From: Pelagibius sp. 7325
Lineage (GTDB): Bacteria; Pseudomonadota; Alphaproteobacteria; Kiloniellales; Kiloniellaceae
Length of the DNA: 64,000 nt
Reading direction: 5' to 3'
Assembly: GCF_037652055.1 (NCBI RefSeq)
Contig: NZ_JBBKAH010000001.1
Span: 66,221 to 130,220 of the forward strand
Shown: one piece after another, positions 8,027 through 36,936 of the stretch
Numbering within the stretch: position 1 is the stretch's first letter
Layout of the letters: each line of letters begins with the position of its first letter
Made by a program: the position numbers and the translations under genes
The notes under the pieces: generated by a model
Databases searched by the model: none
What the model was told of the DNA's origin: nothing
Seen by the model: only the letters and a program-made list of their open reading frames with translations

Positions 8027-8340
8027 GTGTCAAGATTCCCTGAGTTTGCTTGGAACGGCGGCCCCCAATGTGACCGGACGGCGCGGCGGGAGCAAGGGGG
8101 CGGGAACCGCTCCCTTGCCGCCTATCCCCGATGGGAAAGAGGGGCTCCGCATCAGCGGAAGGGGGCCAGGTGAGCGTTGCGCGCGAGGAGCACAGCCGCT
8201 AGAAGCTGTTGCGAATAGCTCTCAATTGCAGCATTCTGTGTACGGGGATACCGATCGCCTTGATGTTCCGGGATCGAGCAACGTCGGTCGGAAGGGGAAC
8301 ATCGGCCTTGGGCCAGAACGCCACGACACTGTCGCTCTTC

Positions 8341-8820: not shown

Positions 8821-8943
8821 CTTTTCCGACTCCGTTATTAGAAAAGGGAGGGGCGATTGCGTCTAATTGTTGAGAGCAAGCCGGTTATCGCGGACTCCCT
8901 GCTGCACACCGCTGCCACCCGCCACGCGGACTAAGGAAGAGGC

Positions 8944-9993: not shown

Positions 9994-10152
9994 CAAATTA
10001 AGCAACGAACCCAATATCTTACGCCCATTCCGAAAAAATCTTAGAAATCCGCCCGGCGCCAGCGTTGCCTTAGTATGGGCAGCGAATGACACGCATTCGC
10101 ATTAATGTGAAAAGCATCCGCGCGTCATGCCTGCCCCGACGAATCAACCGAG

Positions 10153-12696
10153 GTGGGGAGACTTTTCGTGAAAATGGGGGCCGTGAAGAGAGGTGCAGGG
10201 GCACAGGATGCGGCGAGTCAGGCTGCGGCAAGGTCGAAAGCAGAGCGCCCGCAAAGCGAGGCGGGCCAGCCGACCCCGCAGGCTTGCCGTGCGAACGCCG
10301 CGCAGACGCGGCGGCGGCGCAGACTGCGCCGGGCGGGATTGGCCGGCGCGGTGAGCGTCACCGCCGCGATGATGGCCGCGCCGGCGATCGCGGCGGATCC
10401 CGCTGCGGCGGGCGTCGAGATCGCGCAACTGAGCGAACGCTTCACCTTCAACATCGCGGCGCAGCCGCTGGCCAGCGCTCTTACACAGTTCGGACAGCAG
10501 TCGGGGCTGCAGGTGACCGTCGACGGCGCCATCGTCCGCGACCAGCGCGTGCCCTCCGTCGCCGGCACCATGACCGCCGAGCAGGCCTTACGCCAACTGC
10601 TGACGGGCAGCGGACTGACGTATCGCCTGTCCGGCAACACCACGGTCGCCATTCAGAAGGCCGCCGCCGATGACGGTGCGGTCATGCTGGACCCGATCGT
10701 CGTGGAGACCCAGGTCGAATCAGCCTACGGGCCGGTTGACGGATATCGGGCCACCCGCTCCGCAACCGGCACGAAGATGAACACGGCGATCATGGACACG
10801 CCGGCATCGGTCCAGGTCGTGCCGCGGCAGGTCCTGGAAGACCAAAAGGCGATCCGCCTGGCCGACGCCTTGCGCAACGTCAGCAGCGTGCACAGCAGCG
10901 GCACCACCGGAAACCGAAGCGAGAACTTCATCGTACGTGGCCTGCCCTCCAGCCGAATCGCCACCGACGGCTTCCTGAGCGCCGCCACCTTCGGCGATGT
11001 CGGCTTTCTCAACACGGGCAACATCGAACGCGTCGAAGTGCTGAAAGGCCCCGCGAGCGTGCTCTACGGGGCGGCCGATCCGGGCGGCCTGATCAACATC
11101 GTCACCAAGAAGCCGGAAGAAGACGCGTTCTATACCTTCAGCGGCACCTACGGCAGCTATGACCTGTACCGCGGCGACATCGACTTCAACGTCCCGCTGA
11201 CGGAGGACGGCACGGTACTGTCACGGCTCAACGCGTCATATCAGAATGCGGACAGCTTCCGGAACTACTTCACGCGTGCCGAACGCTTCAGCATCGCCCC
11301 GTCGCTGACGTGGATGCCGAATGACCGCACCACGGTCGAGTTCAAAGCGGAATACTTTGAGCAAGAGCATCAGTACGACCGCGGGCTGGTCGTCGTCGAC
11401 GGTGATCCGCTGGCACTGCCCATAGACCGCTACCTGGGCGAGCCGGGCGACCGGGCCAAAGCGGATGAACTGCGTGTCCAGGCAGGCATCGAGCACGCCT
11501 TGTCGGACGACTGGACGGTCCGCCTGCGGGCACGCACCACCGACTCAAACTCGAACCCGCAGGACACCTATCCCCTGGGCCTTCAGGTCGACGGCCGGAC
11601 TCTGGACCGCCAATTCTACGTATTCGATCAGCACTTCCAAACCTATGCCGCCGAAGCCGGATTGGAAGGCAAACTGACGACGGCGGACGTCGAACACCAT
11701 CTGCTTTTCGGCCTGGATACCCAGCTCACCCGCTTCCATTCCCAGAACTTCACCGCGACGGCGACGAGCATCGACATCTTCGACCCCGTCTATGGCGGCG
11801 ACATCGGGCCGCTCACCAGCCTGGGTCAGCAGCAGCGCAACATCGATCTCTACGGCGGCTATCTGCAGGACATCGTCTCCATCGGCGAGCAGTGGAAGGT
11901 ATTGGTCGGCGGGCGTTTCGATATCGCCAAGACCCAGTACCAGCGGGGAGAGACCTGGGTCACCGACAAGGTGGACACTCAATTCTCACCGCGTATCGGC
12001 GTGGTCTATCAGCCCATCGAGACCGTGAGCCTTTACGCCAGCTACTCCGAATCCTTTATTCCGCTGCTGAGCGGCCAGAGCGTCGGGGACGAACCCTTGG
12101 AACCGGAGACGGGTACCCAGGTCGAGATCGGCATAAAACACACGGCCTTCGACGAGCGGCTTTCGACGACCTTCGCGCTGTTCCAGCTGACCCGTGAGAA
12201 CGTATCGACGAGTGACCTCGCCAATCCCGGATTCAGCATTCAGATCGGCGAGCAACGCTCCCGAGGCGCCGAATTGGAAGTCGCCGGCGAGGTGCTGCCC
12301 GGCTGGCAGGTGATCGGTTCGCTGTCCTACCTCGATTCCGAGGTCACCAAGGACAATACGTTCTCCGAAGGAAACCGTTTGCCCAACGTGCCGGAATGGA
12401 GCGGCAGCATCTGGAGCACCTACGCCTTGCAGGATCCCACCTTCGAAGGACTGGAACTGGGTGCCGGCGTCTTCGTCGTCGGCAAACGTGAAGGAGACCT
12501 GAACAACAGCTTCACTGTGCCGGGCTATGCCCGCGTCGACCTGATGGCCCGCTACGAGCTGGTAGAGGACGTCGATCTGTCGGTGAACATCTACAATCTG
12601 TTCGACACCGAATACGTCGAGGCATCCGCCAGTGCCCGGGAAATCTATACCGGAGCGCCATTGACGGCTTTGGCAACCCTCTCCGTCCGGTTCTGA
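10153..12696 (+). CDS. TonB-dependent siderophore receptor with N-terminal STN signalling domain (FecA-like)
   Basis: Twin-Arg signal region. The STN domain is FNIAAQPLASALTQFGQQSGLQVTVD. Plug and barrel follow, with a terminal LSVRF aromatic residue. The true start is probably an internal GTG/ATG near 10.28 kb. Confidence 0.85.
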   Translation: MGRLFVKMGAVKRGAGAQDAASQAAARSKAERPQSEAGQPTPQACRANAAQTRRRRRLRRAGLAGAVSVTAAMMAAPAIAADPAAAGVEIAQLSERFTFNIAAQPLASALTQFGQQSGLQVTVDGAIVRDQRVPSVAGTMTAEQALRQLLTGSGLTYRLSGNTTVAIQKAAADDGAVMLDPIVVETQVESAYGPVDGYRATRSATGTKMNTAIMDTPASVQVVPRQVLEDQKAIRLADALRNVSSVHSSGTTGNRSENFIVRGLPSSRIATDGFLSAATFGDVGFLNTGNIERVEVLKGPASVLYGAADPGGLINIVTKKPEEDAFYTFSGTYGSYDLYRGDIDFNVPLTEDGTVLSRLNASYQNADSFRNYFTRAERFSIAPSLTWMPNDRTTVEFKAEYFEQEHQYDRGLVVVDGDPLALPIDRYLGEPGDRAKADELRVQAGIEHALSDDWTVRLRARTTDSNSNPQDTYPLGLQVDGRTLDRQFYVFDQHFQTYAAEAGLEGKLTTADVEHHLLFGLDTQLTRFHSQNFTATATSIDIFDPVYGGDIGPLTSLGQQQRNIDLYGGYLQDIVSIGEQWKVLVGGRFDIAKTQYQRGETWVTDKVDTQFSPRIGVVYQPIETVSLYASYSESFIPLLSGQSVGDEPLEPETGTQVEIGIKHTAFDERLSTTFALFQLTRENVSTSDLANPGFSIQIGEQRSRGAELEVAGEVLPGWQVIGSLSYLDSEVTKDNTFSEGNRLPNVPEWSGSIWSTYALQDPTFEGLELGAGVFVVGKREGDLNNSFTVPGYARVDLMARYELVEDVDLSVNIYNLFDTEYVEASASAREIYTGAPLTALATLSVRF

Positions 12697-12720
12697 CCCC
12701 ATGAGGTCTGCCTGCCCGCG

Positions 12721-13008
12721 ATGACCGCCAAGACCGAAGGCGCCGCCATGGCCCTGCGCATAGCCGTCGGTATTGTCGGCGGCTATGCCCTGGCCTGCGC
12801 GGTGGCCATCTGGATTTCCTATGTCCTGCCCCTGGCCCGGGCCGATGCGGTCCTGACCGGTCAGCTCATCAGCTTCATCGTCTACGCCGGTGCCGTGCTG
12901 TGGGTCTTCGCCGTGCGCAGCGCGCTGCGCGCCACCGTCGGCATTTCGCTGGCGATCCTGGCGTTCAGCGCCCTCGCATGGCTCTGCGCCCCCGCGATCT
13001 CAGCGTGA
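12721..13008 (+). CDS. DUF3649-family small membrane protein
   Basis: 95-aa double-TM protein that conventionally follows TonB receptors and precedes PepSY-TM proteins. Confidence 0.55.
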   Translation: MTAKTEGAAMALRIAVGIVGGYALACAVAIWISYVLPLARADAVLTGQLISFIVYAGAVLWVFAVRSALRATVGISLAILAFSALAWLCAPAISA

Positions 13009-13021
13009 AGGAGGCCGCATC

Positions 13022-14572
13022 ATGAAGGGTGCGTTCCGCCCGTCGATGAGCTGGCTGCACACCTGGGCCGGTCTCGTTGTCGGCTGGGTACTGTTCTTCA
13101 TCTTCCTGACGGGGACCGCCGGCTACTTCGATGCCGAAATCGATCGCTGGATGCAGCCGGAGCGCCCGCTGATCGAGCAGAAGGCAAGCGCCCCCCAGGA
13201 GGCCGACGGCGCGCGCCGCTTCCTGGAACGCCAGGCAGGGAATGCCGAACGCTGGCTCATCGTTCTGTCCGGCGACCGGCTGCCCGACGTCAGGCTGTTC
13301 TGGCGCAACCCGCCGACGGCGGCCGGCGCCGCCGCGGGAGAAGAATACCTGGAGCCGGCCACCGGCAATCCCGTTTCCTACCGCAAAACCGGCGGCGGCC
13401 AGTTGCTGTACAAGATGCACTACCGCCTGCACTACCTGCCCGAGGTAGCCGCCTACTGGCTGGTCGGGCTCTGCACCATGGCGATGCTGGTCGGTATCGT
13501 AACCGGCGTGATCGTTCACAAGAGGATCTTTCGCGACTTCTTCACGCTGCGCCTCGCCAAAGGGCAGCGGTCCTGGCTGGATGCGCACAACGGGCTCAGC
13601 GTCCTCGCCCTGCCTTTTCATCTGATGATCACCTATTCCGGGCTGATGTTCCTAGTCAGTTTCTACATGGCCCCGGTTGTTGTCGCGTCCTACGGACTGG
13701 AGGGCGCCGGCCGGGGCGTTTACTTCGACGAACTGTTCGAACGGGGCACAGGCGTAGCGCGCAGCGGCGAGGCCGCGCCGCTGGCGCCCTTGGGGCCCAT
13801 GGTCGCTGAAGCGGAACACCGCATGGGCGTCGGCGCGGTCTCCTTCATCGATGTCAGCCATCCCGGCGACACCAACGCGCGGGTGGCGGTTACCGGTGGC
13901 GCGCCGCACCCCACGCGCCGGGACCAGCGTTTGCTGTTCGACGGTGTGAGCGGCAGGCTGCTCTCCGAGTCCGGGCCGCGCAGCGCGCCGCTCGTCGTGT
14001 TCGAAAGCCTGCTGGGGCTGCACGAGGGGCTGTTTGCAGGCCCCGTGCTGCGCTGGCTGTATTTTCTCTCAGGCGCCATGGGCACGGCGATGATCGCCGC
14101 CGGGCTGATCCTCTGGACAGTGAAGCGGCGCGCAAGAGCCGGCGATACGACAGGCTTTCGCCTGGTCGAGTGCCTGAACATCGGCACCCTCGCCGGGCTG
14201 CCGATCGCCCTTGCCGCCTACTTCTGGGCCAACCGCCTGATTCCCGTCGGGATCGATGACCGTGCCGCCTGGGAAGGGCACAGTTTGTTCCTCACCTGGG
14301 CCGTGCTGCTGATCCATCCCTTCCTGCGCCCGGCGGCGCGCGCCTGGCGCGAGCAACTGTGGCTCGCCGCCGCGGCCTTTGCCCTGTTGCCGGCGGTGAA
14401 CGCGCTGACGACCGCGCGCCACCTGGGAATCACCCTGCCAGCCGGAATATGGGATCTGGCGGGCATCGACCTGGCCTTCCTGACGACCGGCCTGGCCTTC
14501 GCCGCCGCCGCGCTGGCGGTGACACCGCACACAGGCTCCGCCAGGGCGCCGCGCCGGAGACCGGCCGAATGA
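13022..14572 (+). CDS. PepSY-associated TM helix protein (PiuB-like siderophore-interacting membrane protein)
   Basis: Starts MKGAFRPSMSWLHTWAGLVVGW after a GAAGGAGG RBS. Multiple TM helices, with conserved His residues in the TM segments. Confidence 0.8.
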   Translation: MKGAFRPSMSWLHTWAGLVVGWVLFFIFLTGTAGYFDAEIDRWMQPERPLIEQKASAPQEADGARRFLERQAGNAERWLIVLSGDRLPDVRLFWRNPPTAAGAAAGEEYLEPATGNPVSYRKTGGGQLLYKMHYRLHYLPEVAAYWLVGLCTMAMLVGIVTGVIVHKRIFRDFFTLRLAKGQRSWLDAHNGLSVLALPFHLMITYSGLMFLVSFYMAPVVVASYGLEGAGRGVYFDELFERGTGVARSGEAAPLAPLGPMVAEAEHRMGVGAVSFIDVSHPGDTNARVAVTGGAPHPTRRDQRLLFDGVSGRLLSESGPRSAPLVVFESLLGLHEGLFAGPVLRWLYFLSGAMGTAMIAAGLILWTVKRRARAGDTTGFRLVECLNIGTLAGLPIALAAYFWANRLIPVGIDDRAAWEGHSLFLTWAVLLIHPFLRPAARAWREQLWLAAAAFALLPAVNALTTARHLGITLPAGIWDLAGIDLAFLTTGLAFAAAALAVTPHTGSARAPRRRPAE

Positions 14573-14886
14573 CGGCATTGTCCCTGCTGCTTGCCTACGG
14601 GGGATTCGCCGGCCTTGCCCTGGCCCAGGAGCGGCACGCCCGTCAGGCCTTGCAGCGCACCCTGTCGAACCGCCTGCAGCAGTGGTTCCGCATGAGCGGG
14701 GCGCTCTGCCTGTCCGCTGCATTGATCGCCTGCATCACAGCGGCCGGCACCGCCAGCGGCATCGTCCTGTGGTGTGGCGTCCTCTCGGCTGCCGCGGTGG
14801 CACTGCTGCTGATGCTGTGCCTTGCGCCGCGCTGGTTCTTCATGCCGCCCTTGCTGCTGATCCCCTTTGCCTTCTCCGTGACATGA
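14568..14886 (+). CDS. DUF3325-family membrane protein
   Basis: MTALSLLLAYGGFAGLALAQERHARQALQ... Its ATG overlaps the PepSY stop in an ATGA junction. Usual partner of PepSY-TM proteins. Confidence 0.55.
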
Positions 14887-14924
14887 AACCGCCGGAGCCT
14901 GGCGAGAGGCCAAGGGACTAGACC

Positions 14925-16823: not shown

Positions 16824-16949
16824 GGTCACATCGCTCCCATTTGTGGGCCCTGGACCGAGCCCTTGTTCTTTCGTGGCCGTGCCCGCCCCGGCCTTCACCC
16901 TGAGGAGAGGCCCCAAAGGGGAGCCTCATCCTGAGCCCCCAAAAAGGAG

Positions 16950-16991
16950 CCTCATCCTGAGGAGCGCCGGAACGGCGCGTCTCGAAGGACG
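16950..16991. repeat. half-copy of family-A repeat (cctcatcctgaggag-N-cgtctcgaagg), left boundary of island 1
   Basis: cctcatcctgaggagcgccggaacggcgcgtctcgaaggacg. It is the reverse complement of 21062-21104, and the same arms form complete palindromic units at 40421-40525 and 42695-42797. Confidence 0.7.
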
Positions 16992-17272
16992 AGGCAGCCG
17001 GGCTGCGCCCGGCTTCAACGTCGCGGGGGCCGCCCGCCCCCGCACCCCCGGATTTGCTTTCATTTCCGGGGGTTAGCGGTTCCAGGCAGCCAAAAGCCTT
17101 GACCCGAGAATACGTCCGAGAGCAGGCGAAAAAAAGCCTAGCGACGGAGGGGGAAGAAGGCGTTGAGATGGATCAAGGGGGTATGTTTCTACGCCGCGTC
17201 AAACTGGCCTTGGCGAGTTCAATCGACCCCGCCCATAAGCCTTTGTGGCTGTTTCAGATTCGGCGAAGCGCC

Positions 17273-19219
17273 CTACGCATACCAACTTGGTGGAACTAGG
17301 AATCTACCGCGTCTCCATTCCTCAACTATCGCACGCTCAAACCAGTCCTCATTCAAATGCGCATGATCCAACACAATCAACTGCAATCCGTTGATGACTT
17401 GACACTCGCGATGCATTAGCTCGAACAATGCATGTACAGCATGTCGATCTTTGTCCTCCAAAGGATCTAAGCTTCCTTCTTGGTCACGCTCCGCTGGATA
17501 ATGAGCTTGCGATGGCTGATCGAAAATGAGAACCCCAGGAACTGGTCGATCCCGCTTCCGAAACCACCAATGCAATGCAAGGTACGTCAACACGTGATAG
17601 CCAACCCAATTTTCACCACTACCCATTCGATTGAGTGGAATTGGACCATCATCGGTATCAGCGACGACTGTCAATTTCTTAAGATCAAGCCGCAGCGCAC
17701 TACCACTGTGCTCCAAATCCAACGCCTCAGCATAGATTGACATTTGCTTGCTGATTAAGTTGAGGTAGGTGTCTGTTTTCTGCGCAATTTCATCGATATC
17801 AACAGCCGCTTCAAGAGCTTGCACCCTACGCTTAGCTGCTTCAATCTGGGGCACTAGGTCTACGGCAACATCAGGTGGTCGGATGCCGTCTATAAATGCT
17901 CCGATACGACCCACCACCCGCGCGCGTTCCAATAGAATATCCTGCTGGGCTCTTGCCCGCTCATCTTCAGCAATTGCTCTCGCCAAAGAAGCCTGCGTTT
18001 CCACTAGCGATTTCTCTAATGCGTCGCGCTTACTCGTGAGCTGCTCAAGATGCCTTTGCAGGTGAGGCTGCTCCAGCTCTACCGATTCCAATTGCCTTGT
18101 CACATCAGAAAGCGCCGCTTCGATCTGTATTGATGCTGGCGTTGGAACAGCTAGTTCAGACTCGCAAACGGGACAAGCATGCCCTAAGTCTGCCCCAGAC
18201 TTGAACAAGCCAATCGCGCTAAGCCTAGCGCGCTGCTCGCTGCGTTCGCGAGAGTATGCGCTCTGCTCAGACATCAAGAGTCGCGCTGCTCGCAATTCTT
18301 CCGACGTCTGCTCGAGGGCCTCGCGCAAAGTCCCCTGCTCTTCGCGCAACCGATTAATAGTGGTGCCGAAGTCTGGAAGCGAGACGTTAGTTGCCAAATC
18401 GACCTGACTTGCCGCGCTTAGGACTTGCAGAGTGTCATCAACTACGACCGGCTCAAACTCCTGAGGAACGATATTGACACGCTTGCCGTCATTGATCAGC
18501 CGACGGAGCCTAACCAAGTCAACAACCTGCCGTTCTTCCTGCAGAGATGCCCGCTGCTGCAACTCCGCCAATAACTCCCTAGCCATATCGAGTTCATGCT
18601 GCCGAAGGAAGTGTTGATCATCGACCGCTCCAAGAAAGTATGGCAGGGTATCCTTAATGGCTTGCGGGATAAATTGCTCACCTTGTCGATGGAAGAGTCG
18701 TTCTCGATTATCTATTTCGTCCTGCTTCTGAAAACATAAAAAAAGAGCGTGTCGGATAGTTGCTTGCAGCGGCAAACGAGTGCCGCTTTGGGGGCGATGT
18801 TCATTTTCCGTTATGCCAACGAACCGTGTCAGCATTCGGACAATTTCACCCTCAACCACATTCGATTTGAGTTCGTCGAACACCGGCGGAGCTTCAAAGG
18901 CACCTCTTCGAATGTAAATTTCGCCACCACGATCGGTGCCGGGCCCCGGATTCTTCCGAGCAATAAACAGAACATCCTCACCCTTAACAACCTCAAGACC
19001 GAACCACGACACATAGCGCCGAACAATACCCTCAGCAACGTGACAATGACTGCGACCTAGACAGTAGTCGATAATATCAATAATTGCCGACTTTCCCGTC
19101 TTCGACTCCCCCGTAATGACGTTCAACCCCTCCATCTTAAACGGGAGGGTCCTTTGTTCCCCTTGGTGCGAGTACAGAACTATCGACTTGATTCTCATGC
19201 TCACGGTTTTATACCCCAA
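17273..19219 (-). CDS. SMC/Rad50-like P-loop ABC ATPase with coiled-coil and CxxC hook; candidate ABC-three-component (ABC-3C) system ATPase
   Basis: 648 aa. N-terminal strand plus Walker A (LNVITGESKTGKSAIIDIIDYCLG). Long heptad-rich middle with CPVCESEL. C-terminal LIFDQPSQ (Walker B/D-loop-like, DUF3732-like tail). Low GC. Confidence 0.7.
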   Translation of the reverse strand: MGYKTVSMRIKSIVLYSHQGEQRTLPFKMEGLNVITGESKTGKSAIIDIIDYCLGRSHCHVAEGIVRRYVSWFGLEVVKGEDVLFIARKNPGPGTDRGGEIYIRRGAFEAPPVFDELKSNVVEGEIVRMLTRFVGITENEHRPQSGTRLPLQATIRHALFLCFQKQDEIDNRERLFHRQGEQFIPQAIKDTLPYFLGAVDDQHFLRQHELDMARELLAELQQRASLQEERQVVDLVRLRRLINDGKRVNIVPQEFEPVVVDDTLQVLSAASQVDLATNVSLPDFGTTINRLREEQGTLREALEQTSEELRAARLLMSEQSAYSRERSEQRARLSAIGLFKSGADLGHACPVCESELAVPTPASIQIEAALSDVTRQLESVELEQPHLQRHLEQLTSKRDALEKSLVETQASLARAIAEDERARAQQDILLERARVVGRIGAFIDGIRPPDVAVDLVPQIEAAKRRVQALEAAVDIDEIAQKTDTYLNLISKQMSIYAEALDLEHSGSALRLDLKKLTVVADTDDGPIPLNRMGSGENWVGYHVLTYLALHWWFRKRDRPVPGVLIFDQPSQAHYPAERDQEGSLDPLEDKDRHAVHALFELMHRECQVINGLQLIVLDHAHLNEDWFERAIVEEWRRGRFLVPPSWYA

Positions 19220-19704
19220 CTAGATAAGATAGTTGACGTCGTACCCGCCTTTGCGAACCATCGCCCAAGCAGACGAGCGCTCGAGACACAGCCCTGGGCA
19301 TCATATGTCAGGCTATGGATGAACTTCTGTGACACAGCCAATTTTTGTGCACCGAGTTGCAAGCCGCCGTCTGTCGAAATTGTCAGAGCTCCTTTATCAA
19401 TGCAGAAGCGAACCGCTTCCTGAAGCGTCGGCCGAAGACCCTTTGCTCTCTGAACATACCCGACCATGACTTCGGGGTTCCGTTCGCGCCAAGTGTACAT
19501 TGATGTTAAGGTCGTTGAAGGGAGTGCATTCCGCGTCCTTGCATGCAATGCAATCGGCAACCCGCAAAATGGGAGCACAAATGGACAGGGAGCAGCAGTA
19601 CTTTTCTGATACTCCTTCACGAACTCGATGGCGAGCATTCCACAGAATGCCGGATTAAAAAGTGTTGCCTCTTCCTTCGGCCTAGCATCCCATTTTGGAA
19701 GCAT
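19201..19704 (-). CDS. hypothetical protein; candidate middle component of the three-gene system
   Basis: 167-aa ORF overlapping the downstream ATPase start by 19 bp and abutting the upstream gene stop. Low GC, no recognisable motif. Confidence 0.55.
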   Translation of the reverse strand: MLPKWDARPKEEATLFNPAFCGMLAIEFVKEYQKSTAAPCPFVLPFCGLPIALHARTRNALPSTTLTSMYTWRERNPEVMVGYVQRAKGLRPTLQEAVRFCIDKGALTISTDGGLQLGAQKLAVSQKFIHSLTYDAQGCVSSARLLGRWFAKAGTTSTILSSWGIKP

Positions 19705-20897
19705 TAGCCATCACCTTTTGATTTCTTCTCAGAGAACAAGGCCTGATAGTCGGGATGCCAACCCACCCTCACACTGTCTGCAAGAATCTGATACGAACCG
19801 GTACAAAGCCAACGCTCATGTCTATTTCGAAAAGGTAGCTCGCTCCGGTTGGCCCAATGATATAAGGTGCGCCCAAAAACTTTTTTTAGGTCGTCTGATG
19901 ACAAGTCAGCAGTATCTTGCTGAGCCAATGATTCACTCTGCCAGCGTTCGATAAGCGCTTCGTCATAGCGGCTCGATTCACCGTCAAGAAGGACATTCTC
20001 TCGTGCCCACGCAGTTCGTTGCGCTGAGGCTCGGTAATAGTCGCGCTTTCCCAATTCGACGACGGGGTCAGAGAGACCAACGCACTTCATCTGTTTGACG
20101 AAGATGTGGTTATCAGATGCGAGTTCCGCGTCCGGAACTTCTGAGACCTCTTGGTGGAGCATGAGATCACCCATACGAAATTGAGAAGCGATCTCGTCGA
20201 TTTTCTGTCGAAGCGACAGAAGAGATATCGGCGGTGCCGACGCATCGGTTAGAGCTTTGACGATAGTCGCAAACCACCAACCTTCCAAGTGATCGACGAG
20301 CTTTGCAACGTGTTGTGCCGGGGAAGCGAAAGCTAGTCTTTCTTCAATCTCGCTGCGCACATCAGTAATTGTTGGAGCATTATCATGGACCACAATTGCT
20401 GCAACGAGATCTTTTCTCATCTGACTCGGCAAAGACAGGAAAGCTTCCCGGGCGACTGTTGTCGCCTTGTTGCTAGATGAAGCAGCGATTCGACTCAAGA
20501 TATCGAGAGCTTCTGCTTCGTCATTATCATTGCGACCAACTCGCAACTTCGCGGCTACAGAATCTTTCGGCGCCGTAGCAGTTGTGATAATCGAAAACTT
20601 GCACTCATACAGGGCTTGAGGATTCGAAACGATCTGTTCGCTCCAGATTCGCAACGTCTTCCAGAGATCTGAGCTAGCATCCGTGAGACTAGATGCAATA
20701 GAATGATGTTTGAGTTGAAACTGCGATGTTATTCCGGCTGCAGTCTCAAAAGAGACATCGTCAAACTTTTCGACGCACAAAAGACGATTCGGGAATCGAG
20801 CGCTTTCTTCAATGGCGAGTAGAAGAGCTTCTCTGCACTGATACAGATAACCGACCATAGATGCAGCCGCGCTGTACTTAGACGGACCATTTGTCAT
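19704..20897 (-). CDS. hypothetical protein with N-terminal PD-(D/E)xK-like nuclease motif; candidate effector of the three-gene system
   Basis: 397 aa. The N-terminus GYLYQCREALLLAIE...CVEKFDDVSFE...FQLKHH resembles the E-x(n)-DD-x(n)-QxK REase-like core seen in Cap4/DUF4297-type effectors. The rest is alpha-helical and unassigned. Confidence 0.55.
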   Translation of the reverse strand: MTNGPSKYSAAASMVGYLYQCREALLLAIEESARFPNRLLCVEKFDDVSFETAAGITSQFQLKHHSIASSLTDASSDLWKTLRIWSEQIVSNPQALYECKFSIITTATAPKDSVAAKLRVGRNDNDEAEALDILSRIAASSSNKATTVAREAFLSLPSQMRKDLVAAIVVHDNAPTITDVRSEIEERLAFASPAQHVAKLVDHLEGWWFATIVKALTDASAPPISLLSLRQKIDEIASQFRMGDLMLHQEVSEVPDAELASDNHIFVKQMKCVGLSDPVVELGKRDYYRASAQRTAWARENVLLDGESSRYDEALIERWQSESLAQQDTADLSSDDLKKVFGRTLYHWANRSELPFRNRHERWLCTGSYQILADSVRVGWHPDYQALFSEKKSKGDG

Positions 20898-21061
20898 CTC
20901 AGCTGAGGCTCTTACACATGTTCGCCCAGAAAACGAACTTTATATTACCGCATTATCGCAATGGTTGTCATGGTTAATGTATGCGCCAGCTCGTTCGATT
21001 TGGGCGATCATCCTCTCGCCGCGTCGCTCTCTTGGACAGGAATTGGAAAATCAAGGTCACG

Positions 21062-21104
21062 CCGCATCCTTCGAGACGCGCCTTCGGCGCTCCTCAGGAT
21101 GAGG
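21062..21104. repeat. half-copy of family-A repeat (cgtctcgaagg-N-ctcctcaggatgagg), right boundary of island 1
   Basis: ccgcatccttcgagacgcgccttcggcgctcctcaggatgagg, the reverse complement of 16950-16991. Confidence 0.7.
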
Positions 21105-21126
21105 CTCAGGGGGTGGGGAGAGGGCT

Positions 21127-21415
21127 TTACGCCGCGGCCGGGTTGACCAGCGGGGCGCGTTCGCCGGGCCTGAGCACGGTGGCGTCGTAGGGGCGGCGGG
21201 CGAAGACGTCGCGCACCATGGGGGCGAAGAACTGCAGCGGCAGGGTGTCGTAGTCGGGGTCGAAGCTCGCCTGGTCCCAGCGCTCGCAGAAGTCGGCACA
21301 GTCGTCGAAGTAGGGGTGGCCGCGGTGGCGCTCGCGCCGATCGCGGTCGAAGCCGGCGAGGTGGTGGCCGTAGTAGTAGAGCTGGAACTCGCCGTGGCGG
21401 CGCGTCACCCGCATC
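21127..21415 (-). pseudogene. truncated 3' duplicate of the HD-domain gene at 26095-26700
   Basis: Encodes VTRRHGEFQLYYYGHHLAGFDRDRRERHRGHPYFDDCADFCERWDQASFDPDYDTLPLQFFAPMVRDVFARRPYDATVLRPGERAPLV. This matches the C-terminal ~95 aa of the full-length HD protein with 3 substitutions, and the DNA is about 95% identical over ~285 bp. The 5' end is cut off by a family-B REP element. Confidence 0.75.
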
Positions 21416-21490
21416 CCTCTCCCACGCAGGGAAGAGGAAAACCAAAAGCACCCCTCCCCTCCCTCCCCCATCAAGGGGGAGGGGGTTATA
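21413..21490. repeat. REP-like element family B (partial)
   Basis: catccctctcccacgcagggaagagg followed by ccctcccctccctcccccatcaagggggaggggg palindromes. Confidence 0.5.
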
Positions 21491-21699
21491 GCGGGGCCTC
21501 CCCCATACTCCTGCCTTCGCCGAAGCGGCTCCGGGCAGGCAGGTCGAGACGCCGCCTTCCGGCGGCTCCTCAGGATGATGTGGAAGGGGGATACGGCAGG
21601 GCCCGGGCCGCGTCCGGTTGAGGCGGGCGCGCTTCCATGATCCAATGCAGCCGGATGCGGCAGGGCGGGGGCGGCCAGGCGGAGATCCGGCGGTGAAGG

Positions 21700-22869
21700 G
21701 TGCGAATGACGGCGGGTGCGGCTTGCCGCGCGGGCGGCGCGGTCGCAGCGGAACGCCCGCGTTCCGGGGCGCGGCGATTGCGTAGCAGGCCGATGCGGCC
21801 GGCGCGGGCGCTGCTGCTGGCGATCGGGACGGCCTGCGGCGCCGCCGGGTGCGCGACGCCAGCGGCGCCGCTCTATTCCACGGACACGGCGCCGGTCGCG
21901 CTGGTCGATATCACGGGCGCCGGGGGCCGCGACCTGCGCGCGGCCTTCCGGGCGGCGGCCTGCCGCCGCCTGCCGGCGGAGGGACCGGCCTGCGACGAAG
22001 TCGTGCTGCGGCTGGCGGGCGAGGCTCCCGAGGCGGCACCGGCGGACGCGGCCCCGGCAGCGCCGCCGGAGGTGACGGAGCGGGAACTCGCCCAGCGCTT
22101 TCGCATCGGCTTCGTGCCCGGGCTGTTCGCCCAGTGCTTCGACGACTACTCGCGCGCCTTCGGCGACGCGCAGAGCGCGATGGAGGCAGCGGGCTTCACC
22201 GCCGCCTATTTCCAGGTGCCGGGACGCAGCAGCGCCGCCCGCAACGCGGACCGCCTGGCGGCGATGATCGCCGGCCTGCCGCCGGACCCCCGGCCCTTCA
22301 TCCTCTTCGCCCACTCCAAGGGGCTGATCGACACCTTGGAGATGGCGCTGCGCCATCCCGAGGCGCTGGGGCAGGTCGCCGCGGTCGTCGGCGTCGCCGC
22401 CGCGGCCAACGGCAGCCCGCTGGCCGACATCCAGTCGACGCTGTACCGCAACGGCGTCGCCGGCTTCCCGCTGCCCGGCTGCGCGCCCAGCGACGGCGAA
22501 GAGATCGAGGACCTGCAGAGAGACCGCCGCCTGGCCTGGTGGCAGCGCCACCGCAAGGACATCACGGTGCCGCTCTATTCCCTGGTCGCCGCGCCGGAGG
22601 CCGACAGCCTGTCGCCGCTGGTCCGCTATTCCTACGACCGCCTGGCGCGCATCGATCCGCGCAACGACGGCAAGCTGCTGTGGTACGACCAGATCATGCC
22701 GCAGAGCGGCCTGCTGGGCTATGTGAACGCCGACCACTGGACCATCGCCTTCGATGCTTACCGCGAGATCGATGCCCTGGCCCTGACGTTCGAGGACCGG
22801 GTGCCGCGCGGCATCCTCATCCGCGCCGCCACGGAGGTGGTCGCGGCCTCGCTGGCCGGCGGCGAATAG
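21700..22869 (+). CDS. putative lipoprotein, alpha/beta-hydrolase (serine esterase/lipase-like)
   Basis: Signal/lipobox region ALLLAIGTACGAAGC and a nucleophile-elbow-like FAHSKGLID block. The probable start is the internal M at about 21793. Confidence 0.55.
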   Translation: MRMTAGAACRAGGAVAAERPRSGARRLRSRPMRPARALLLAIGTACGAAGCATPAAPLYSTDTAPVALVDITGAGGRDLRAAFRAAACRRLPAEGPACDEVVLRLAGEAPEAAPADAAPAAPPEVTERELAQRFRIGFVPGLFAQCFDDYSRAFGDAQSAMEAAGFTAAYFQVPGRSSAARNADRLAAMIAGLPPDPRPFILFAHSKGLIDTLEMALRHPEALGQVAAVVGVAAAANGSPLADIQSTLYRNGVAGFPLPGCAPSDGEEIEDLQRDRRLAWWQRHRKDITVPLYSLVAAPEADSLSPLVRYSYDRLARIDPRNDGKLLWYDQIMPQSGLLGYVNADHWTIAFDAYREIDALALTFEDRVPRGILIRAATEVVAASLAGGE

Positions 22870-23012
22870 CGGCGGCTGGTCGCTGATTAAGCGGGGATAC
22901 TTTGTCGCGCCCTACGCGCCGAGAAGCTGTCCGAGTTGCGGGGAGAAGGTTGCGTAGGCCGAGGCGCCAGCGTGCGACAGCGGCAGCTTGGAAGGACTGA
23001 GGACTTCGATAA

Positions 23013-23375
23013 ATGGAACACATCCGCGGCATCGGGAAGCTGAAGAAGTTCTCCGAGTCCCTGACGCTCTGCCGCTTTAGTACGCTTCGGCTGTTCACCC
23101 TGGATCACCAGGGACGCTATGCCTTTATTCACTGCCGCCTGAAGACTGAGCGCTTCGACCCGCCGCTGGCCATGGACCTGCGTTTCGACGGCGTGTCGAG
23201 CGTTCAGATCAAGGGCGTGGGCGGCGGTATCCTCTCCCAGATCACCGGGTTCGCCGTCGTGGACATCAGTGCCAAGGGTTGGGAAGGCATCAACTGGGAA
23301 GCCATCGACTATGAGGAAGGCAGGATCCGTTGGTACGCGGAAGACTTTCAAATCCTCGATGTGGTGCGGGTTTGA
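23013..23375 (+). CDS. hypothetical small protein (orphan)
   Basis: 120-aa ORF with moderate GC sitting between two family-B REP elements. No recognisable motif. Confidence 0.35.
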   Translation: MEHIRGIGKLKKFSESLTLCRFSTLRLFTLDHQGRYAFIHCRLKTERFDPPLAMDLRFDGVSSVQIKGVGGGILSQITGFAVVDISAKGWEGINWEAIDYEEGRIRWYAEDFQILDVVRV

Positions 23376-23387
23376 GGGGCTAAGGGC

Positions 23388-23500
23388 CCCCTCACCCCGA
23401 CCCTCTCCCCGCTGGGGAGAGGGAGTCCCCCTCACCCAGCTGCGCCTAGGCTCGTTCCTCGCCAAGGCTTCGCATCCCTCTCCCGCGAGGGGAGAGGGGA
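23388..23500. repeat. REP-like element family B (tandem/double copy)
   Basis: ccctcaccccgaccctctccccgctggggagaggg followed by ccctcacccagctgcgcctaggc...gccaaggcttcgcatccctctcccgcgaggggagagggg. Confidence 0.7.
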
Positions 23501-23594
23501 ATCATCCCTGGCCAGCAGATCGTCATGGTTCCGGCGGAAAAGCGCCGCAATCGTCCGCCACAAAAACGCTGGAGACTTTCAAAGGGGGGGGGAA

Positions 23595-24098
23595 ATGCGG
23601 AGACATGCGGTCCTGCTTCTGCTGGGGCTCGGCCTGCCGGTGCTGCTGGCCGGCTGGATCAGCCTGGATTACACCACGGAGAGCGGCGCGGCCTGGTTCG
23701 CGGAGAACAGGCGCGACCTGCTGCGGCTGAACGCTGCTCTGCTGGCACGGCCGCAGATCACCTGGGTCGAACCGGCCCTGCGGCTTCAGTTCATACCCAA
23801 TTCGAAGAACTTTTCCGCCGACGACCTGGCGGCGTACCGCGAGGTCGAGGTCATGACCAAGGACCTGGGGGTTATCAATATCCAAGCGGCCCGCGTGGGC
23901 TCGCAGATCGACGGCGAGTTGATCACGATCCGCTATCTGCTGAAGCGCAGAGGATTCCTGTTCACCAGCAGCGACGCATTGATCGTCGCGTACACTCCGA
24001 ATAGCAAATACCTCGCGCACTGGCAGGAAGAGCCGGGGGCACAGATCGTCCCGCTGGATGTCGAGGGCTGGTACGCGATCGTCGATCACGACGACTGA
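23595..24098 (+). CDS. hypothetical exported protein
   Basis: N-terminal signal peptide MRRHAVLLLLGLGLPVLLAG. 167 aa, no known domain. Confidence 0.5.
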   Translation: MRRHAVLLLLGLGLPVLLAGWISLDYTTESGAAWFAENRRDLLRLNAALLARPQITWVEPALRLQFIPNSKNFSADDLAAYREVEVMTKDLGVINIQAARVGSQIDGELITIRYLLKRRGFLFTSSDALIVAYTPNSKYLAHWQEEPGAQIVPLDVEGWYAIVDHDD

Positions 24099-24118
24099 GG
24101 GTCTCCCGGATCCTCGAG

Positions 24119-24200
24119 CCCCCTCACCCAGCTTCGCCTATTCGCGCACGCGCGCTAAGGCTGCGCATCCCTCTCCCACGCTGGGGGAGAGGGGTTTGGA
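24119..24200. repeat. REP-like element family B
   Basis: cccctcacccagcttcgcctattcgcgcacgcgcgctaaggctgcgcatccctctcccacgctgggggagagggg. Confidence 0.7.
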
Positions 24201-24201
24201 C

Positions 24202-25155
24202 CTACTGCCCTTCCGGGAGGGCCTGGAGGTTGTAGAGGGCGCGCAGCAAGGGTTCGTTGGAAAGCACGCCCATGCCGCCGAACCAGCGCTGGAAGATCGG
24301 CAGGATGTCGCGCGAGCGGTAGAGCGCGGCCAGGGTGCGGTCGACGGCCAGCAGGAAGTCGGGCGAGTCGCGGCGCACGGCGAGCGCATAGGGCTCATAG
24401 GAGATGAGGCGGTTGAGCAGCGTCAGCTTTTCCGGCTCGCGCGCGCGGCCGATGAGGTTCACCAGCAGGATGCGGTCGCCGAAGAAGGCGGCGATCTGCT
24501 TGTCCTCCAAGGCGGCGAGCCCGGCGTCGTAGCCGTTGAACAGCACGACCTCCACATCGACGAGGTTCAGGCGGACGATGGCCTCGCGCACGGCGTCCTC
24601 CGCCGTGGTGCCGCCCACCACGCCGACGCGCCGGCCGTTGAAGTCCACCGCCGCGCTGAAGTCGAGTTCGTCGTGCACCAGGAACTCGATGCCGGTCGCG
24701 AAGGTCAGCAGCGAGAAGGCGACCTGCTCGCGGCGCTTCAGGGTTTCCGTCGTCGAGCCGCAGAGGATGTCGATGTCGCCGTCCTGCAGCGCCTGGAAAC
24801 GGGTCTCGGCCGTCACCGCGCGGTATTCGACGGCGAGATCCGGCAGGTTCAGGCTTTGCTTCAGGTCCTCGGCCACCGCCAGGCAGAGGTCGATGGTGTA
24901 GCCGACCACCGCCCCGGGGGCGCCGTGGTGCAGCCCGGTCGCCTCGGAGACCATGAAGGAGAACGGCACCGACTGCTCGCGGTGGCCGACCACCAGGGTC
25001 TTCGTATCGACGATTTTGCGCAGCGTCGGGTCGAGAGACGGGTCAAGCGTTTGCGCGGCAGCGCCGGGCCCCATCGCGAGCGCGGCGAGGGCGAGCAGCG
25101 CGGCGGCCAGGGGCGCGCGCCGTCGCTGTGCCGCGATGAAGCCCAAGCGCGCCAT
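24202..25155 (-). CDS. ABC transporter substrate-binding protein (amino-acid family, SBP_bac_3)
   Basis: Signal peptide, then a periplasmic type-II SBP fold (VGHREQSVPFSF..., GVVGGTTAEDAV...). Confidence 0.75.
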   Translation of the reverse strand: MARLGFIAAQRRRAPLAAALLALAALAMGPGAAAQTLDPSLDPTLRKIVDTKTLVVGHREQSVPFSFMVSEATGLHHGAPGAVVGYTIDLCLAVAEDLKQSLNLPDLAVEYRAVTAETRFQALQDGDIDILCGSTTETLKRREQVAFSLLTFATGIEFLVHDELDFSAAVDFNGRRVGVVGGTTAEDAVREAIVRLNLVDVEVVLFNGYDAGLAALEDKQIAAFFGDRILLVNLIGRAREPEKLTLLNRLISYEPYALAVRRDSPDFLLAVDRTLAALYRSRDILPIFQRWFGGMGVLSNEPLLRALYNLQALPEGQ

Positions 25156-25177
25156 GATCAGATGGCCTCCGCCATGG

Positions 25178-25838
25178 TCAGAAAGCCTCCGCCAGGGCCG
25201 TGTTCACCAGGGCATAGAACATCTGCTGGCCGGCGTTGATCGAATAGACCGGCTTGAAGCGCTTGTGCTCGCTGTCCGGCACGACGCGGCCGTAGAGATT
25301 GTCGAGCACGAACTGGCGCCCGTCGTCGATCTCCATCACCGCGACGGCATGGCCGACGGGTTTCGAGCCGCCGGCGCTCACCTGGCCCGCGACCATCCAG
25401 ATCTTCTCGATGTCGAAGCCGCCGAAGTAGGCCGACACGATGTAGACATGCGCGTAGTCGTCGCAGTCGCCGTAGCCGCGGGCGATGGTCTCCCCCGGTG
25501 TCGACCAGACGTCGCCGCGTTCGGACTGGTATTTCACCAGGGAGAAGGTTTCCTTGTAGAAGGCCTTCATCTGGGCCTCCTGCGGCTGGTCCTCGATGGT
25601 CGTCAGGAAGGCGCGCCAGGCACGCACGTCGGCCGAGCTGCTCTTGGCATAGCCCTGGTATTCCTTCAGCAGGCGGTTGTAGTACTGGTGCTGCTGGGTC
25701 TTGTCGGCGAAGGAATTCGGCAGCTTGAAGATGACCTCGTAGCGCGCCTCGGCCGCGTTGAAGGACGCGCCGGCGAGGACCAGCGCGGCGGCCAGCGCCG
25801 TGATGCTTCCGGAAGACGTCCGCTTTACCCAGGACATG
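25178..25838 (-). CDS. transglutaminase-like cysteine peptidase (BTLCP family)
   Basis: RGYGDCDDYA catalytic Cys block, with downstream conserved His (VGHAVAV) and Asp (VLDN). N-terminal signal peptide. Confidence 0.8.
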
Positions 25839-26094
25839 ACGGCACCTCCGCTGCGACACTGCCGGGAAGGAGAGGCGATCACCTGTTACCGCTGCGGGTC
25901 CGGCGGCGGGACCGGGTGCGCGCACACGCGCGATGGTCCGGGAGGCCGGCGCCGGGCCGGTCCCGCCATCTTAGTCCGCCCGGAGTTCGCGTCCAGGCTT
26001 TGTTTTCAACGAAGGCTACGCGGATGGGGTGCAGGGTGGGAGACGCCCTCCCCCGGGGGCGGGCGGCGGGCGCCCGAAGCGGGAGCGGAAGGGC

Positions 26095-26700
26095 CTAGGG
26101 GCCGACGGTCACCAGCGGGGCGCGTTCGCCGGGCCTGAGCACGGTGGCGTCGTAGGGGCGGCGGGCGAAGACGTCGCGCACCATGGGGGCGAAGAACTGC
26201 AGCGGCAGGGTGTCGTAGTCGGGGTCGAAGCTCGCCTGGTCCCAGCGCTCGCAGAAGTCGGCGCAGTCGTCGAAGTAGGGGTGGCCGCGGTGGCGCTCCC
26301 GGCTGTCGCGGTCGAAGCCGGCGATGAGGTGGCCGTAGTAGTAGAGCTGGAACTCGCCGTGGCGCCGCGTCACCCAGGTGCACTGCTCGCGCACGAAGGG
26401 CTTCAGGATCGCCGCGGCGTAGTCGGCGTGGCTGAAGGGCGCATGGATGTCGCCGATGTCGTGCAGCAGCGCCGTCACGATCCAGTCGGTGTCGGCGCCG
26501 TCGCGAAAGGCGCGCGTCGCGGTCTGCAGCGAGTGGCCGAGGCGCGTCACCTTGTAGCCGGAGATGCCGTCCTCCAGTGCGGCCATCGCCGCCAGCAGGC
26601 GCTCGGCGGTGTGCCGGTGGTGGTCGTACACCAAGTCGGTGAGGTAGGCGTATTCCTCCTTGGTGCCGTCCTTCATCTGCGTGAAATTGACGGATTCCAT
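26095..26700 (-). CDS. HD-domain metal-dependent phosphohydrolase/oxygenase-like protein
   Basis: Starts MESVNFTQMKDG. HD motifs are DHHRHTAERL, LLHDIGD and HADYAAAI. Its 3' end is duplicated at 21127-21415. Confidence 0.75.
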   Translation of the reverse strand: MESVNFTQMKDGTKEEYAYLTDLVYDHHRHTAERLLAAMAALEDGISGYKVTRLGHSLQTATRAFRDGADTDWIVTALLHDIGDIHAPFSHADYAAAILKPFVREQCTWVTRRHGEFQLYYYGHLIAGFDRDSRERHRGHPYFDDCADFCERWDQASFDPDYDTLPLQFFAPMVRDVFARRPYDATVLRPGERAPLVTVGP

Positions 26701-26863
26701 CGGCGCTCTCCGTTCGCTCTCTGAAAGCCTGCGTCCTGCAGGCTCGCTCTCGCAGGAATCCTGGGGGCCGCGCCGGGCAGCGTCAAGCGGCGGGCGCGAT
26801 TGGTCCGGGGAAGTCGTGGGAATGGACCCGTGGGACGGGACGGCGGAGCGGGGCGGCAAGGCG

Positions 26864-27331
26864 TCAGCCGCCCGTCCCGGTTCCCCGGCCGTCGGGGCGC
26901 CGGTCAGAGGCGATGCAGTCGCCGCCCTTCAGGGCTTCGAGAATGGTGTGCAGCAGGGAATAGGTCAGCGGCTTCGGGTAGCGCGGCGCGCCTTCCATCA
27001 GCGCGTCGTCGGAGATCGATTCGCTGTAGCCGCTGATGATCGCAAAGGGGATGCCGAGCGCCTTCAGACGGCGCGCGAAGGGCGCGACGGAGCGGCCCAT
27101 GAGTTCCTCGTCCAGCAGCGCGCAGGACGGCGGATCGGCCTCCAGCAGGGAGATCGCGCCTTCCACGCTGCTGGCGGGACCGAGCGGCCGGCAGCCGATC
27201 GATTCGAGCATATCGCAGATCTCGAGGCCGACGAGGAACTCGTCCTCGACGACGAGAACCGCCGTGCTCTCCTGCGGGTCGGCATCGCCGGGCGAGGCCG
27301 GGGCCGGGTTCTGCGGTACAGACTTGTTCAT
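26864..27331 (-). CDS. single-domain response regulator (REC)
   Basis: VLVVEDE acidic pocket, phospho-acceptor region ALLDEEL, and conserved S/T (IISGY) and K (KP). Confidence 0.7.
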   Translation of the reverse strand: MNKSVPQNPAPASPGDADPQESTAVLVVEDEFLVGLEICDMLESIGCRPLGPASSVEGAISLLEADPPSCALLDEELMGRSVAPFARRLKALGIPFAIISGYSESISDDALMEGAPRYPKPLTYSLLHTILEALKGGDCIASDRRPDGRGTGTGG

Positions 27332-27542
27332 GCGCCGTGTCGCCTCCCTGGGGTTTGGGAATCACGGGGGGTTGGGGATCTGCGGGTTTCGGATCAGAAC
27401 GTCCGGGGGGCTGAATGGTTGCCTGCCGCCGTAAGCCGCGCGGGCGACACGCGGGCGTCGGGTCTGTTCCGCGGGCCGCGAAGGCGTGCTACCAACCCCG
27501 GCGCGGCAGGCCGGTTCCGGCAGAAAACAGGGGGAGACCAGG

Positions 27543-28046
27543 ATGGCAGCGGACAACGCCGGAGCGATCGCGGTGCGGCCCGTGCGGCGGGAGGATCACG
27601 CCCAATGGCTGGCGCTGTGGCATGCCTACAACGTGTTTTATGGCAGGTCCTGGGGGCGGAACGGCGAGCCGCCGGTCGAGCCCGAGGTGACGGCGGCGGC
27701 CTGGGCGCGCTTCTTCGACGACTCCCAGCCGCTGTGGGCGCTGGTGGCGGCCGAGGCAAGCGCCGGGGGTGACGAAGGCAGGCTGCTGGGCTTCACCCAT
27801 TACCTCTTTCACCTGGGCACCAACTTTATCCAGCCGCTCTGCTACCTGGAGGACCTCTTCACCGTGGAGGCGGCGCGCGGCCGCGGCGTCGGGCGGGCGC
27901 TCATCCAGGCGGTCTGCGACGCGGCGCAGGCGGCGGGTTCGGCGCGGGTCTACTGGCAGACCCACGAGAGCAACGCCACGGCCCGGCGGCTCTACGACCG
28001 CGTGGCGGAGCGCCCGGGATTCATCATCTACCAGCGGGATCTGTAG
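27543..28046 (+). CDS. GNAT family N-acetyltransferase
   Basis: Motif A RGRGVGRALIQAVCDAAQAAG and a C-terminal Y..RL..F block. Confidence 0.8.
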   Translation: MAADNAGAIAVRPVRREDHAQWLALWHAYNVFYGRSWGRNGEPPVEPEVTAAAWARFFDDSQPLWALVAAEASAGGDEGRLLGFTHYLFHLGTNFIQPLCYLEDLFTVEAARGRGVGRALIQAVCDAAQAAGSARVYWQTHESNATARRLYDRVAERPGFIIYQRDL

Positions 28047-36926: not shown

Positions 36927-36936
36927 ATTATCGCTC

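Follow-up and report, generated by a model that had tools for sequence, protein, structure and literature searches.

Which system is encoded by the operon of low guanine plus cytosine (GC) content that lies upstream of the propionyl-CoA synthetase gene (prpE) of Pelagibius sp. 7325, and how did it come to lie there? We addressed this question in a stretch of 64,000 nucleotides (NCBI RefSeq assembly GCF_037652055.1, contig NZ_JBBKAH010000001.1, positions 66,221 to 130,220), which is called the window below and to which all coordinates refer unless another locus is named. A preliminary description, made from the letters of the window without database searches, had outlined an island at 16950-21104 and assigned to it a single minus-strand operon of 397-, 167- and 648-amino-acid (aa) reading frames, interpreted as an ABC-three-component (ABC-3C) system. 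All three frames were found at those positions, the 648-aa frame being the longest open reading frame (ORF) of its gene. Our analysis leads us to conclude, with high confidence, that the low-GC block carries a type II “short” Lamassu system with a Cap4 effector (lmuA-lmuC-lmuB; synonymous with DdmABC and with ABC-3C of the CTD7/MC3 type), intact and acquired by horizontal transfer, and that it occupies a defence hotspot upstream of prpE. The block and its three genes are the following.

17182-21060, no strand: horizontally acquired cargo block with a GC content of about 0.51, holding only the lmuACB operon with its leader and trailer.
19704-20897, minus strand: lmuA, the effector gene, 397 aa (from Pfam, PADLOC, sequence matches in the PDB, and an AlphaFold2 model searched with Foldseek).
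19201-19704, minus strand: lmuC, the middle component of MC3 type, 167 aa (from Pfam, PADLOC and the PDB).
17273-19204, minus strand: lmuB, a short SMC/Rad50-like ABC ATPase sensor, most likely of 643 aa from a GTG at 19204 (the longest ORF, 17273-19219, opens with a TTG and has 648 aa).

The assignment to ABC-3C was borne out by profile searches. In Pfam, residues 266-386 of LmuA match CTD7 (PF20283, 5.9e-32), the full length of LmuC matches MC3 (4.3e-43), and residues 466-641 of LmuB match DUF3732/LmuB_C (PF12532, 1.5e-51), LmuB being a Rad50/SMC-like ATPase with a CxxC hook; no Pfam family matched the N-terminus of LmuA, and the SMC_N and AAA_23 models reached only the P-loop of LmuB, below threshold. 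PADLOC called all three genes, each over its full length: LmuA as PDLC03848 (4.2e-53), LmuC (9.1e-13) and LmuB as PDLC03859 (3.1e-123). The further statement that ABC-3C systems are experimentally uncharacterised has to be withdrawn. ABC-3C and Lamassu/DdmABC are names for one and the same family (bioRxiv 10.1101/2025.03.14.643221; PMC11707656), members of which have been tested against phages and plasmids and solved by cryo-electron microscopy (cryo-EM). The computational classification behind the Pfam families CTD1-12 and MC1-8 therefore does not denote a separate uncharacterised class, and the Pelagibius operon is its CTD7/MC3 member.

Defence of this family against phages and plasmids, sensing of DNA ends and activation by an LmuA tetramer were published between 2022 and 2025. 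Family members protect Escherichia coli and Bacillus subtilis from phages with an abortive-infection phenotype that requires the ATPase, the effector and lmuC, and operons of the same architecture as the one described here (Cap4 plus CTD7, MC3 and DUF3732) defend against phages and plasmids through abortive infection (bioRxiv 10.1101/2022.05.11.491447); protection by family members that depends on all three components is also documented in PMC12663957. In Vibrio cholerae, DdmA consists of Cap4 plus CTD7 and DdmB is an MC3 protein; DdmABC acts against both plasmids and phages, and palindromic DNA elicits its response (PMC11707656). Cryo-EM has captured apo, DNA-bound and activated states (PMC12663957; PDB 9hqu/9hqx/9hr5, 9nxx/9ny5, 9uxh) and revealed an LmuA1-LmuB2-LmuC1 sequestration complex, binding of double-stranded DNA (dsDNA) ends and an active LmuA tetramer (PMC12663957; bioRxiv 10.1101/2025.03.14.643221). 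Lamassu is present in about 10-15% of prokaryotic genomes (PMC12663957; bioRxiv 10.1101/2022.05.11.491447).

The placement within the short clade rests on LmuB. The published signature of a “short” Lamassu ATPase comprises a Walker A motif Gx4GK[S/T], a Walker B motif hhhhD[Q/S/T/E] instead of hhhhDE or hhhhDD, zero to two CxxC motifs and a length of about 600 aa (PMC12663957). In the numbering of the 648-aa frame, the Pelagibius protein has the Walker A motif GESKTGKS (G37-S44, with K43), a single zinc-hook motif CPVC (349-352) near its middle, the signature MGSGE (532-536) and the variant Walker B VLIFDQ (563-568, with D567-Q568), which aligns with LILDQ of Salmonella LmuB; together with its DUF3732 domain and its length of 643-648 aa, every element of the short class is thus in place. 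Full-length matches in the PDB were obtained with 9hqu_A (1.3e-59) and 9ny5_D (7e-47), with the CxxC and D-Q motifs aligned. The start of the gene is most likely the GTG at 19204, because LmuB of the two nearest operons (loci L086 and L087) begins with “MSMTIK”, which aligns there; look-ups of the exact product as 648 aa, or as 641 aa counted from M8, returned no match. Of the two gene overlaps reported in the preliminary description, the one of 1 bp between the lmuC start and the lmuA stop, an ATGA-type coupling, was reproduced, while the one of 19 bp was an effect of the longest ORF and is probably a 4-bp GTGA overlap between the start of lmuB and the stop of lmuC. The lmuC gene thus sits between lmuA and lmuB with translational coupling preserved on both of its sides.

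LmuA consists of an N-terminal nuclease of the Cap4/DUF4297 PD-(D/E)xK type (about residues 1-250) followed by the CTD7 domain. Its sequence matches LmuA of Salmonella (9hqu_C, 7e-15, with the CTD7 region aligned to the C-terminal domain of that chain) and, over the full length, LmuA of V. cholerae (9nxx_A, 3.6e-7). The AlphaFold2 model (mean predicted local distance difference test, pLDDT, of 89.4) was compared with the PDB using Foldseek; the top matches were Salmonella LmuA (9hr5, 8e-17) and V. cholerae LmuA (9nxx, 2e-15), followed by Cap4 of CBASS (6vm5/6wan, about 4e-5) and then by the other Cap4/DUF4297-like nucleases HamA, Avs3 and DUF4297-HerA. In an alignment of 48 homologues the residues E43, D46, D47, Q61 and K63 are invariant, and K63 aligns with the lysine that was changed to alanine in the mutant chain 9hqx_A. 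Because of the fold matches, the five invariant residues and the position of K63, the LmuA effector is predicted to be a Cap4-type PD-(D/E)xK DNase. By analogy with the solved proteins, its CTD7 domain would bind LmuB and LmuC and mediate tetramerisation. LmuC itself matches the chains named “Lamassu C” or “LmuC” in 9uxh_D, 9ny5_C and 9hqu_D (about 5e-5).

The two nearest homologous operons (L086 and L087; LmuA 60% identical) have the same three-gene order and almost the same protein lengths: 397 aa compared with 398 for LmuA, 167 compared with 168 for LmuC, and 643 compared with 645-646 for LmuB. In both, the GC content of the operon is below that of its flanks; one adjoins a restriction-modification gene of the MmeI type and the other an IS3 transposase gene.

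Among the characterised systems, LmuACB of Salmonella enterica (PDB 9hqu/9hqx/9hr5; Li et al., bioRxiv 10.1101/2025.03.14.643221) shares the gene order and the three-component architecture, is the best sequence match for LmuB and the best match in both sequence and fold for LmuA, and agrees in the aligned zinc hook, the D-Q Walker B and the catalytic lysine. It is nevertheless distant, with about 20% identity of LmuA in structural alignment and an E value of 0.04 for LmuC, and the system described here comes from a marine alphaproteobacterium (66% GC). DdmABC of V. cholerae (Lamassu Vc-Cap4; PDB 9nxx/9ny5/9uxl; PMC12663957, PMC11707656) has an identical Pfam architecture, DdmC being a Rad50-like ATPase with DUF3732, likewise belongs to the short LmuB class with a variant Walker B, and matches LmuA and LmuB over their full lengths. 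In contrast to Pelagibius LmuB with its one CPVC, however, V. cholerae LmuB has no zinc hook (PMC12663957), and DdmABC lies on the VSP-2 island under quorum regulation, whereas the Pelagibius copy stands alone as a cassette upstream of prpE. Cap4 of CBASS resembles LmuA in the fold of its N-terminal nuclease and in the active-site motif D/E...QxK; it is switched on by a cyclic oligonucleotide at its SAVED domain, in place of which LmuA has CTD7, with control by LmuB2-LmuC sequestration. We also considered an identity with Gabija and rejected it: GajA models match only residues ~22-57 (6e-5 or weaker), and there is neither a TOPRIM domain nor a helicase gene.

How the operon came to lie upstream of prpE is answered by its composition and by comparison with relatives. 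The block of about 3.9 kb has a GC content of 0.508, compared with 0.666 in the remaining window; along the profile the value falls from 0.67-0.71 to 0.47-0.55 across about 17.1-21.0 kb and then returns to 0.68-0.77. At the third codon position (GC3) it is 0.47-0.51 in the three operon genes and 0.94 in the adjoining prpE. The drop in composition is real and far outside chance, as the claim of a low-GC island had implied, and because of the GC3 difference the block is of foreign origin and horizontally acquired. The left neighbour is indeed the propionyl-CoA synthetase gene, whose product, with its ACAS_N, AMP-binding and AMP-binding_C domains, shows 100% identity to the protein so named by NCBI in Pelagibius sp. 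7325. The left edge of the cargo lies at about 17182-17187, where homology breaks off in common in five genomes (alignment of the window with L081, L082, L083 and L085), and the blastn homology with the related L083 extends to position 17181 of the window. The segment 16950-17181, which had been counted as part of the island, is conserved in four related genomes and is therefore backbone. The right edge, at 21060, was placed by the rise of GC above 0.68 and by a repetitive extragenic palindrome (REP) copy at 21061. The features at the two edges are these.

16839-17181, no strand: conserved backbone upstream of prpE, containing a REP-like palindrome (16947-16995) and a conserved block of about 110 nucleotides (nt); from the five-genome alignment.
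21061-21107, no strand: second REP-like palindrome, inverted relative to 16947-16995, within the high-GC DNA that borders the cargo on the right.

The conserved block, which is non-coding (17060-17181 in the window, with its aligned counterparts in L081-L085), includes CTTGAYC, TAGGCTTTTTTTCGC and TATTCTCG, and the cargo junction coincides with its exact end in all five genomes. It could be the promoter or regulatory region of prpE or a landmark for recombination.

Relatives whose PrpE is 88-91% identical were retrieved, namely Pelagibius marinus, Pelagibius sp. CAU 1746 and metagenome-assembled genomes (MAGs) of Kiloniellaceae, and their loci L081-L085 were compared with the window. Lamassu was absent from the locus upstream of prpE in all of them, which argues against the operon being part of a larger conserved core locus. 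A scan of genome contigs with PrpE retrieved distant genomes only (at most 72% identity), none with shared flanking genes or with Lamassu. At the same junction the compared genomes carry the following cargo.

Pelagibius sp. 7325, the window: Lamassu lmuACB.
Pelagibius sp. CAU 1746, L082:5439-9547: complete Gabija (GajA 8e-254, GajB 2e-224).
MAG from ENA, L083/L084, at L083:4697-7003: the PADLOC candidate PDC-S06 (6e-133).
MAG from NCBI, L085:7976-9981: a 90-aa gene, a 338-aa gene and a RelA_SpoT gene (weak PDC-S33, 9e-11).
P. marinus, L081:6929-9712: four unannotated genes (90 aa, 480 aa, 8xMP and NUDIX) with no PADLOC match.

In every genome the cassettes have a GC content of 0.49-0.51 against a background of 0.64-0.66. 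In Pelagibius sp. 7325 the variable slot extends from prpE to a conserved GNAT acetyltransferase gene (about 17182-27576, about 10.4 kb), and the Lamassu block is its first part; the view that the island consists of the system alone is thus correct for the 3.9-kb low-GC block and does not hold for the slot around it. A strictly empty site was not found, every relative compared having cargo in the slot, and the insertion of Lamassu is deduced from the replacement of cargo among relatives rather than from an empty site. As had been noted at the outset, no integrase or transposase accompanies the operon: neither these nor a tRNA gene lies in or beside the block, no recombinase was found across 16.8-28 kb, and the only tRNA gene is at 33017. 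Because the same junction holds a different low-GC cassette in each genome, the slot is an integrase-free defence hotspot. By their location, the cassettes of P. marinus and of the L085 MAG are candidates for undescribed defence systems. More tentatively, and with the odds in our judgement against it, the slot may be a lineage-wide, integrase-free site in Pelagibius/Kiloniellaceae at which homologous recombination in the conserved flanks exchanges defence cassettes, its unannotated cassettes being undescribed defence systems.

The right flank of the block contains one further element of note.

21128-21418, minus strand: truncated 3' fragment of an HD-domain gene, a direct duplicate of the 3' end of an intact gene (26095-26859, minus strand).

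The repeats (21146-21418 and 26103-26375) are direct, about 270 bp long, about 97% identical and about 5 kb apart; the intact copy matches Pfam HD (1.7e-4), and both copies match a 202-aa gene of L083. The 4.7-kb segment between them (21.4-26.1 kb) is of high GC and encodes a 389-aa unknown protein, a 167-aa unknown protein, an SBP_bac_3 protein and a transglutaminase-like protein; no integrase, recombinase or defence gene was matched in it. We considered the repeats as att sites of a vehicle for Lamassu and rejected this, since they bracket the high-GC segment and not the Lamassu block, and no integrase is present. A related donor may have supplied the HD fragment together with the Lamassu cassette.

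Could the ATPase, of 648 aa as the longest ORF, instead be a housekeeping protein of DNA repair or chromosome maintenance (SbcC/Rad50, RecN or SMC), with its neighbours as accessory repair factors? Its likeness to SbcCD/Rad50-Mre11 is genuine, since both pair an ABC ATPase head with a coiled coil that bears a CxxC zinc hook, and the recognition of DNA ends predicted here is found in that complex too; Lamassu is thought to derive from SbcCD (PMC12663957), and models of Rad50, SMC and RecN do give weak, P-loop-only matches. These NCBIfam matches, however, reach 12-24 bits where the curated cut-offs are 400-1000, and they are confined to residues ~8-67 (at best Rad50_Sulf 24.2 with a cut-off of 1000, RecN 18 with 408 and SMC 18.8 with 729), so that LmuB misses all Rad50/SbcC equivalog thresholds, and the match over the full length is to LmuB (3e-123). 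Moreover, there is no Mre11/SbcD partner, the coiled coil is much shorter, the Walker B is of the D-Q type, the GC content is foreign, and the operon is missing from the same locus in four relatives. We therefore give the housekeeping explanation practically no credence. Another rival holds that the block was carried in by an integrative island or transposon able to move by itself, which would end in the inverted 47-nt repeats (16947-16995 and 21061-21107). The repeat arms are near-perfect (23 nt at 100% and 22 nt at 91%), and the end points chosen in the preliminary description fall precisely on them. They are copies, however, of a REP-like palindrome of about 47 nt with the core CATCCTGAGGAGC...GCGTCTCGAAGGA, which is dispersed, often in inverted pairs, and occurs in the window at 16947-16995, 21061-21107, 21544-21589, 40447-40498 and 42720-42771; for the copies away from the two edges (21.55, 40.4 and 42.7 kb) the core search gave 21565, 40447/40486 and 42720/42759. 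The 13-nt core has seven matches in the window where 0.11 were expected, and a 36-nt pattern with a fixed 3-nt spacer has none because of an indel between copies. In relatives (L081-L083, just upstream of prpE) no copy but the prpE-proximal one is conserved; there it lies in backbone next to other cargo, and the true left junction is about 190 bp inside it. With no transposase or integrase gene, no adjacent tRNA gene and no target-site duplication seen, a self-mobile element is very improbable.

A different doubt concerns activity: the operon might be xenogeneically silenced or a non-functional, decaying remnant with no current role in defence. Its very foreign GC (0.51 versus 0.67), in which amelioration is not evident, would fit this, as would the fact that toxic abortive-infection systems are often lost or silenced. 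Support for a promoter is confined to one weak candidate.

20942-20971, minus strand: sigma-70-like promoter candidate, ATGACA-18-TAATAT, about 45 nt upstream of the lmuA ATG in the AT-rich leader (consensus scan, weak).

Scans of the region for promoters and terminators did not rise above background (five promoter sites versus 2.5 expected). Against decay, all three frames are intact with lengths that match those of homologues, all catalytic and structural motifs are kept, and so is the translational coupling through the ATGA and GTGA overlaps. Silence or decay of the operon is accordingly unlikely in our estimation, and an intact Lamassu system remains the preferred explanation.

Several observations nevertheless weigh against taking this operon as a simple equivalent of the characterised systems. 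LmuA is only 15-20% identical to the solved LmuA proteins in structural alignments, its closest relative among 5.8 billion proteins shares only 61% identity, and the match of LmuC to solved chains has an E value of only 5e-5. The hook-bearing LmuB is nearer to the Salmonella than to the V. cholerae system, and the two published models differ in details. The sole support for a promoter is the weak consensus match described above, with expression and activity presumed. Finally, the host genome is rich in REP elements while the published triggers of Lamassu include palindromic DNA, so that self-triggering would have to be avoided. Because identity to the characterised systems is low, the trigger and the target range of the Pelagibius system could differ from theirs. 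This divergent, hook-bearing Lamassu (at most 61% identity) might even sense a trigger other than the published ones, which is conceivable because a host genome full of REP palindromes must be tolerated.

For expression, complex stoichiometry, trigger and phenotype of the Pelagibius sp. 7325 Lamassu we infer from homologues, and the following mode of action would be expected. Two LmuB protomers, dimerised through the zinc hook and with their short coiled coils folded back, would bind a single LmuC together with the CTD7 domain of a single LmuA, keeping the nuclease monomeric and inactive in the LmuB2-LmuC complex. The slow ATPase heads of LmuB, with the D-Q Walker B, would bind abnormal replication DNA of phages or plasmids, either dsDNA ends or hairpin and palindrome structures. 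Upon such sensing LmuA would be released, and its CTD7 domains would assemble a tetramer in which Cap4 domains are joined into an active site around E43, D46, D47, Q61 and K63. The resulting indiscriminate cutting of DNA would kill or arrest the infected cell before the invader spreads, that is, by abortive infection.

Two other segments specific to the window were observed. A second low-GC island (35300-39200, GC 0.49-0.56), which lacks an integrase and has no counterpart in the syntenic region of L085, encodes a defence-associated reverse transcriptase (RT) system. Its genes are as follows.

35520-36926, minus strand: Drt9 RT (PADLOC 6e-156; Pfam RVT_1).
36937-38499, minus strand: SbcB-like exonuclease (RTasSbcB 7e-125; RNase_T and Exonuc_X-T_C).
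38826-39614, minus strand: 262-aa protein without matches.

The other is a segment of about 6.9 kb (8041-14923) between a conserved adh_short gene and prpE, with a GC content of 0.61-0.68, near that of the host. It encodes an ECF sigma factor, a FecR-like anti-sigma factor, a TonB-dependent receptor and a PepSY_TM protein, is absent from four related loci and looks like an iron/siderophore uptake module.

As a discovery the operon is of small value: Lamassu is widespread, its mechanism has been solved, and LmuA already bears the NCBI label “ABC-three component system protein”. What it adds is a divergent member of the family, and the mildly novel part lies in the hotspot upstream of prpE with its unannotated sister cassettes. 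The locus provides a clean case of a defence cassette without mobility genes at a precisely conserved junction, usable for guilt-by-location discovery of defence systems in marine Alphaproteobacteria. Furthermore, a divergent zinc-hook Cap4 Lamassu in a high-GC, REP-rich host could serve to probe how general the models of DNA-end and palindrome sensing are.

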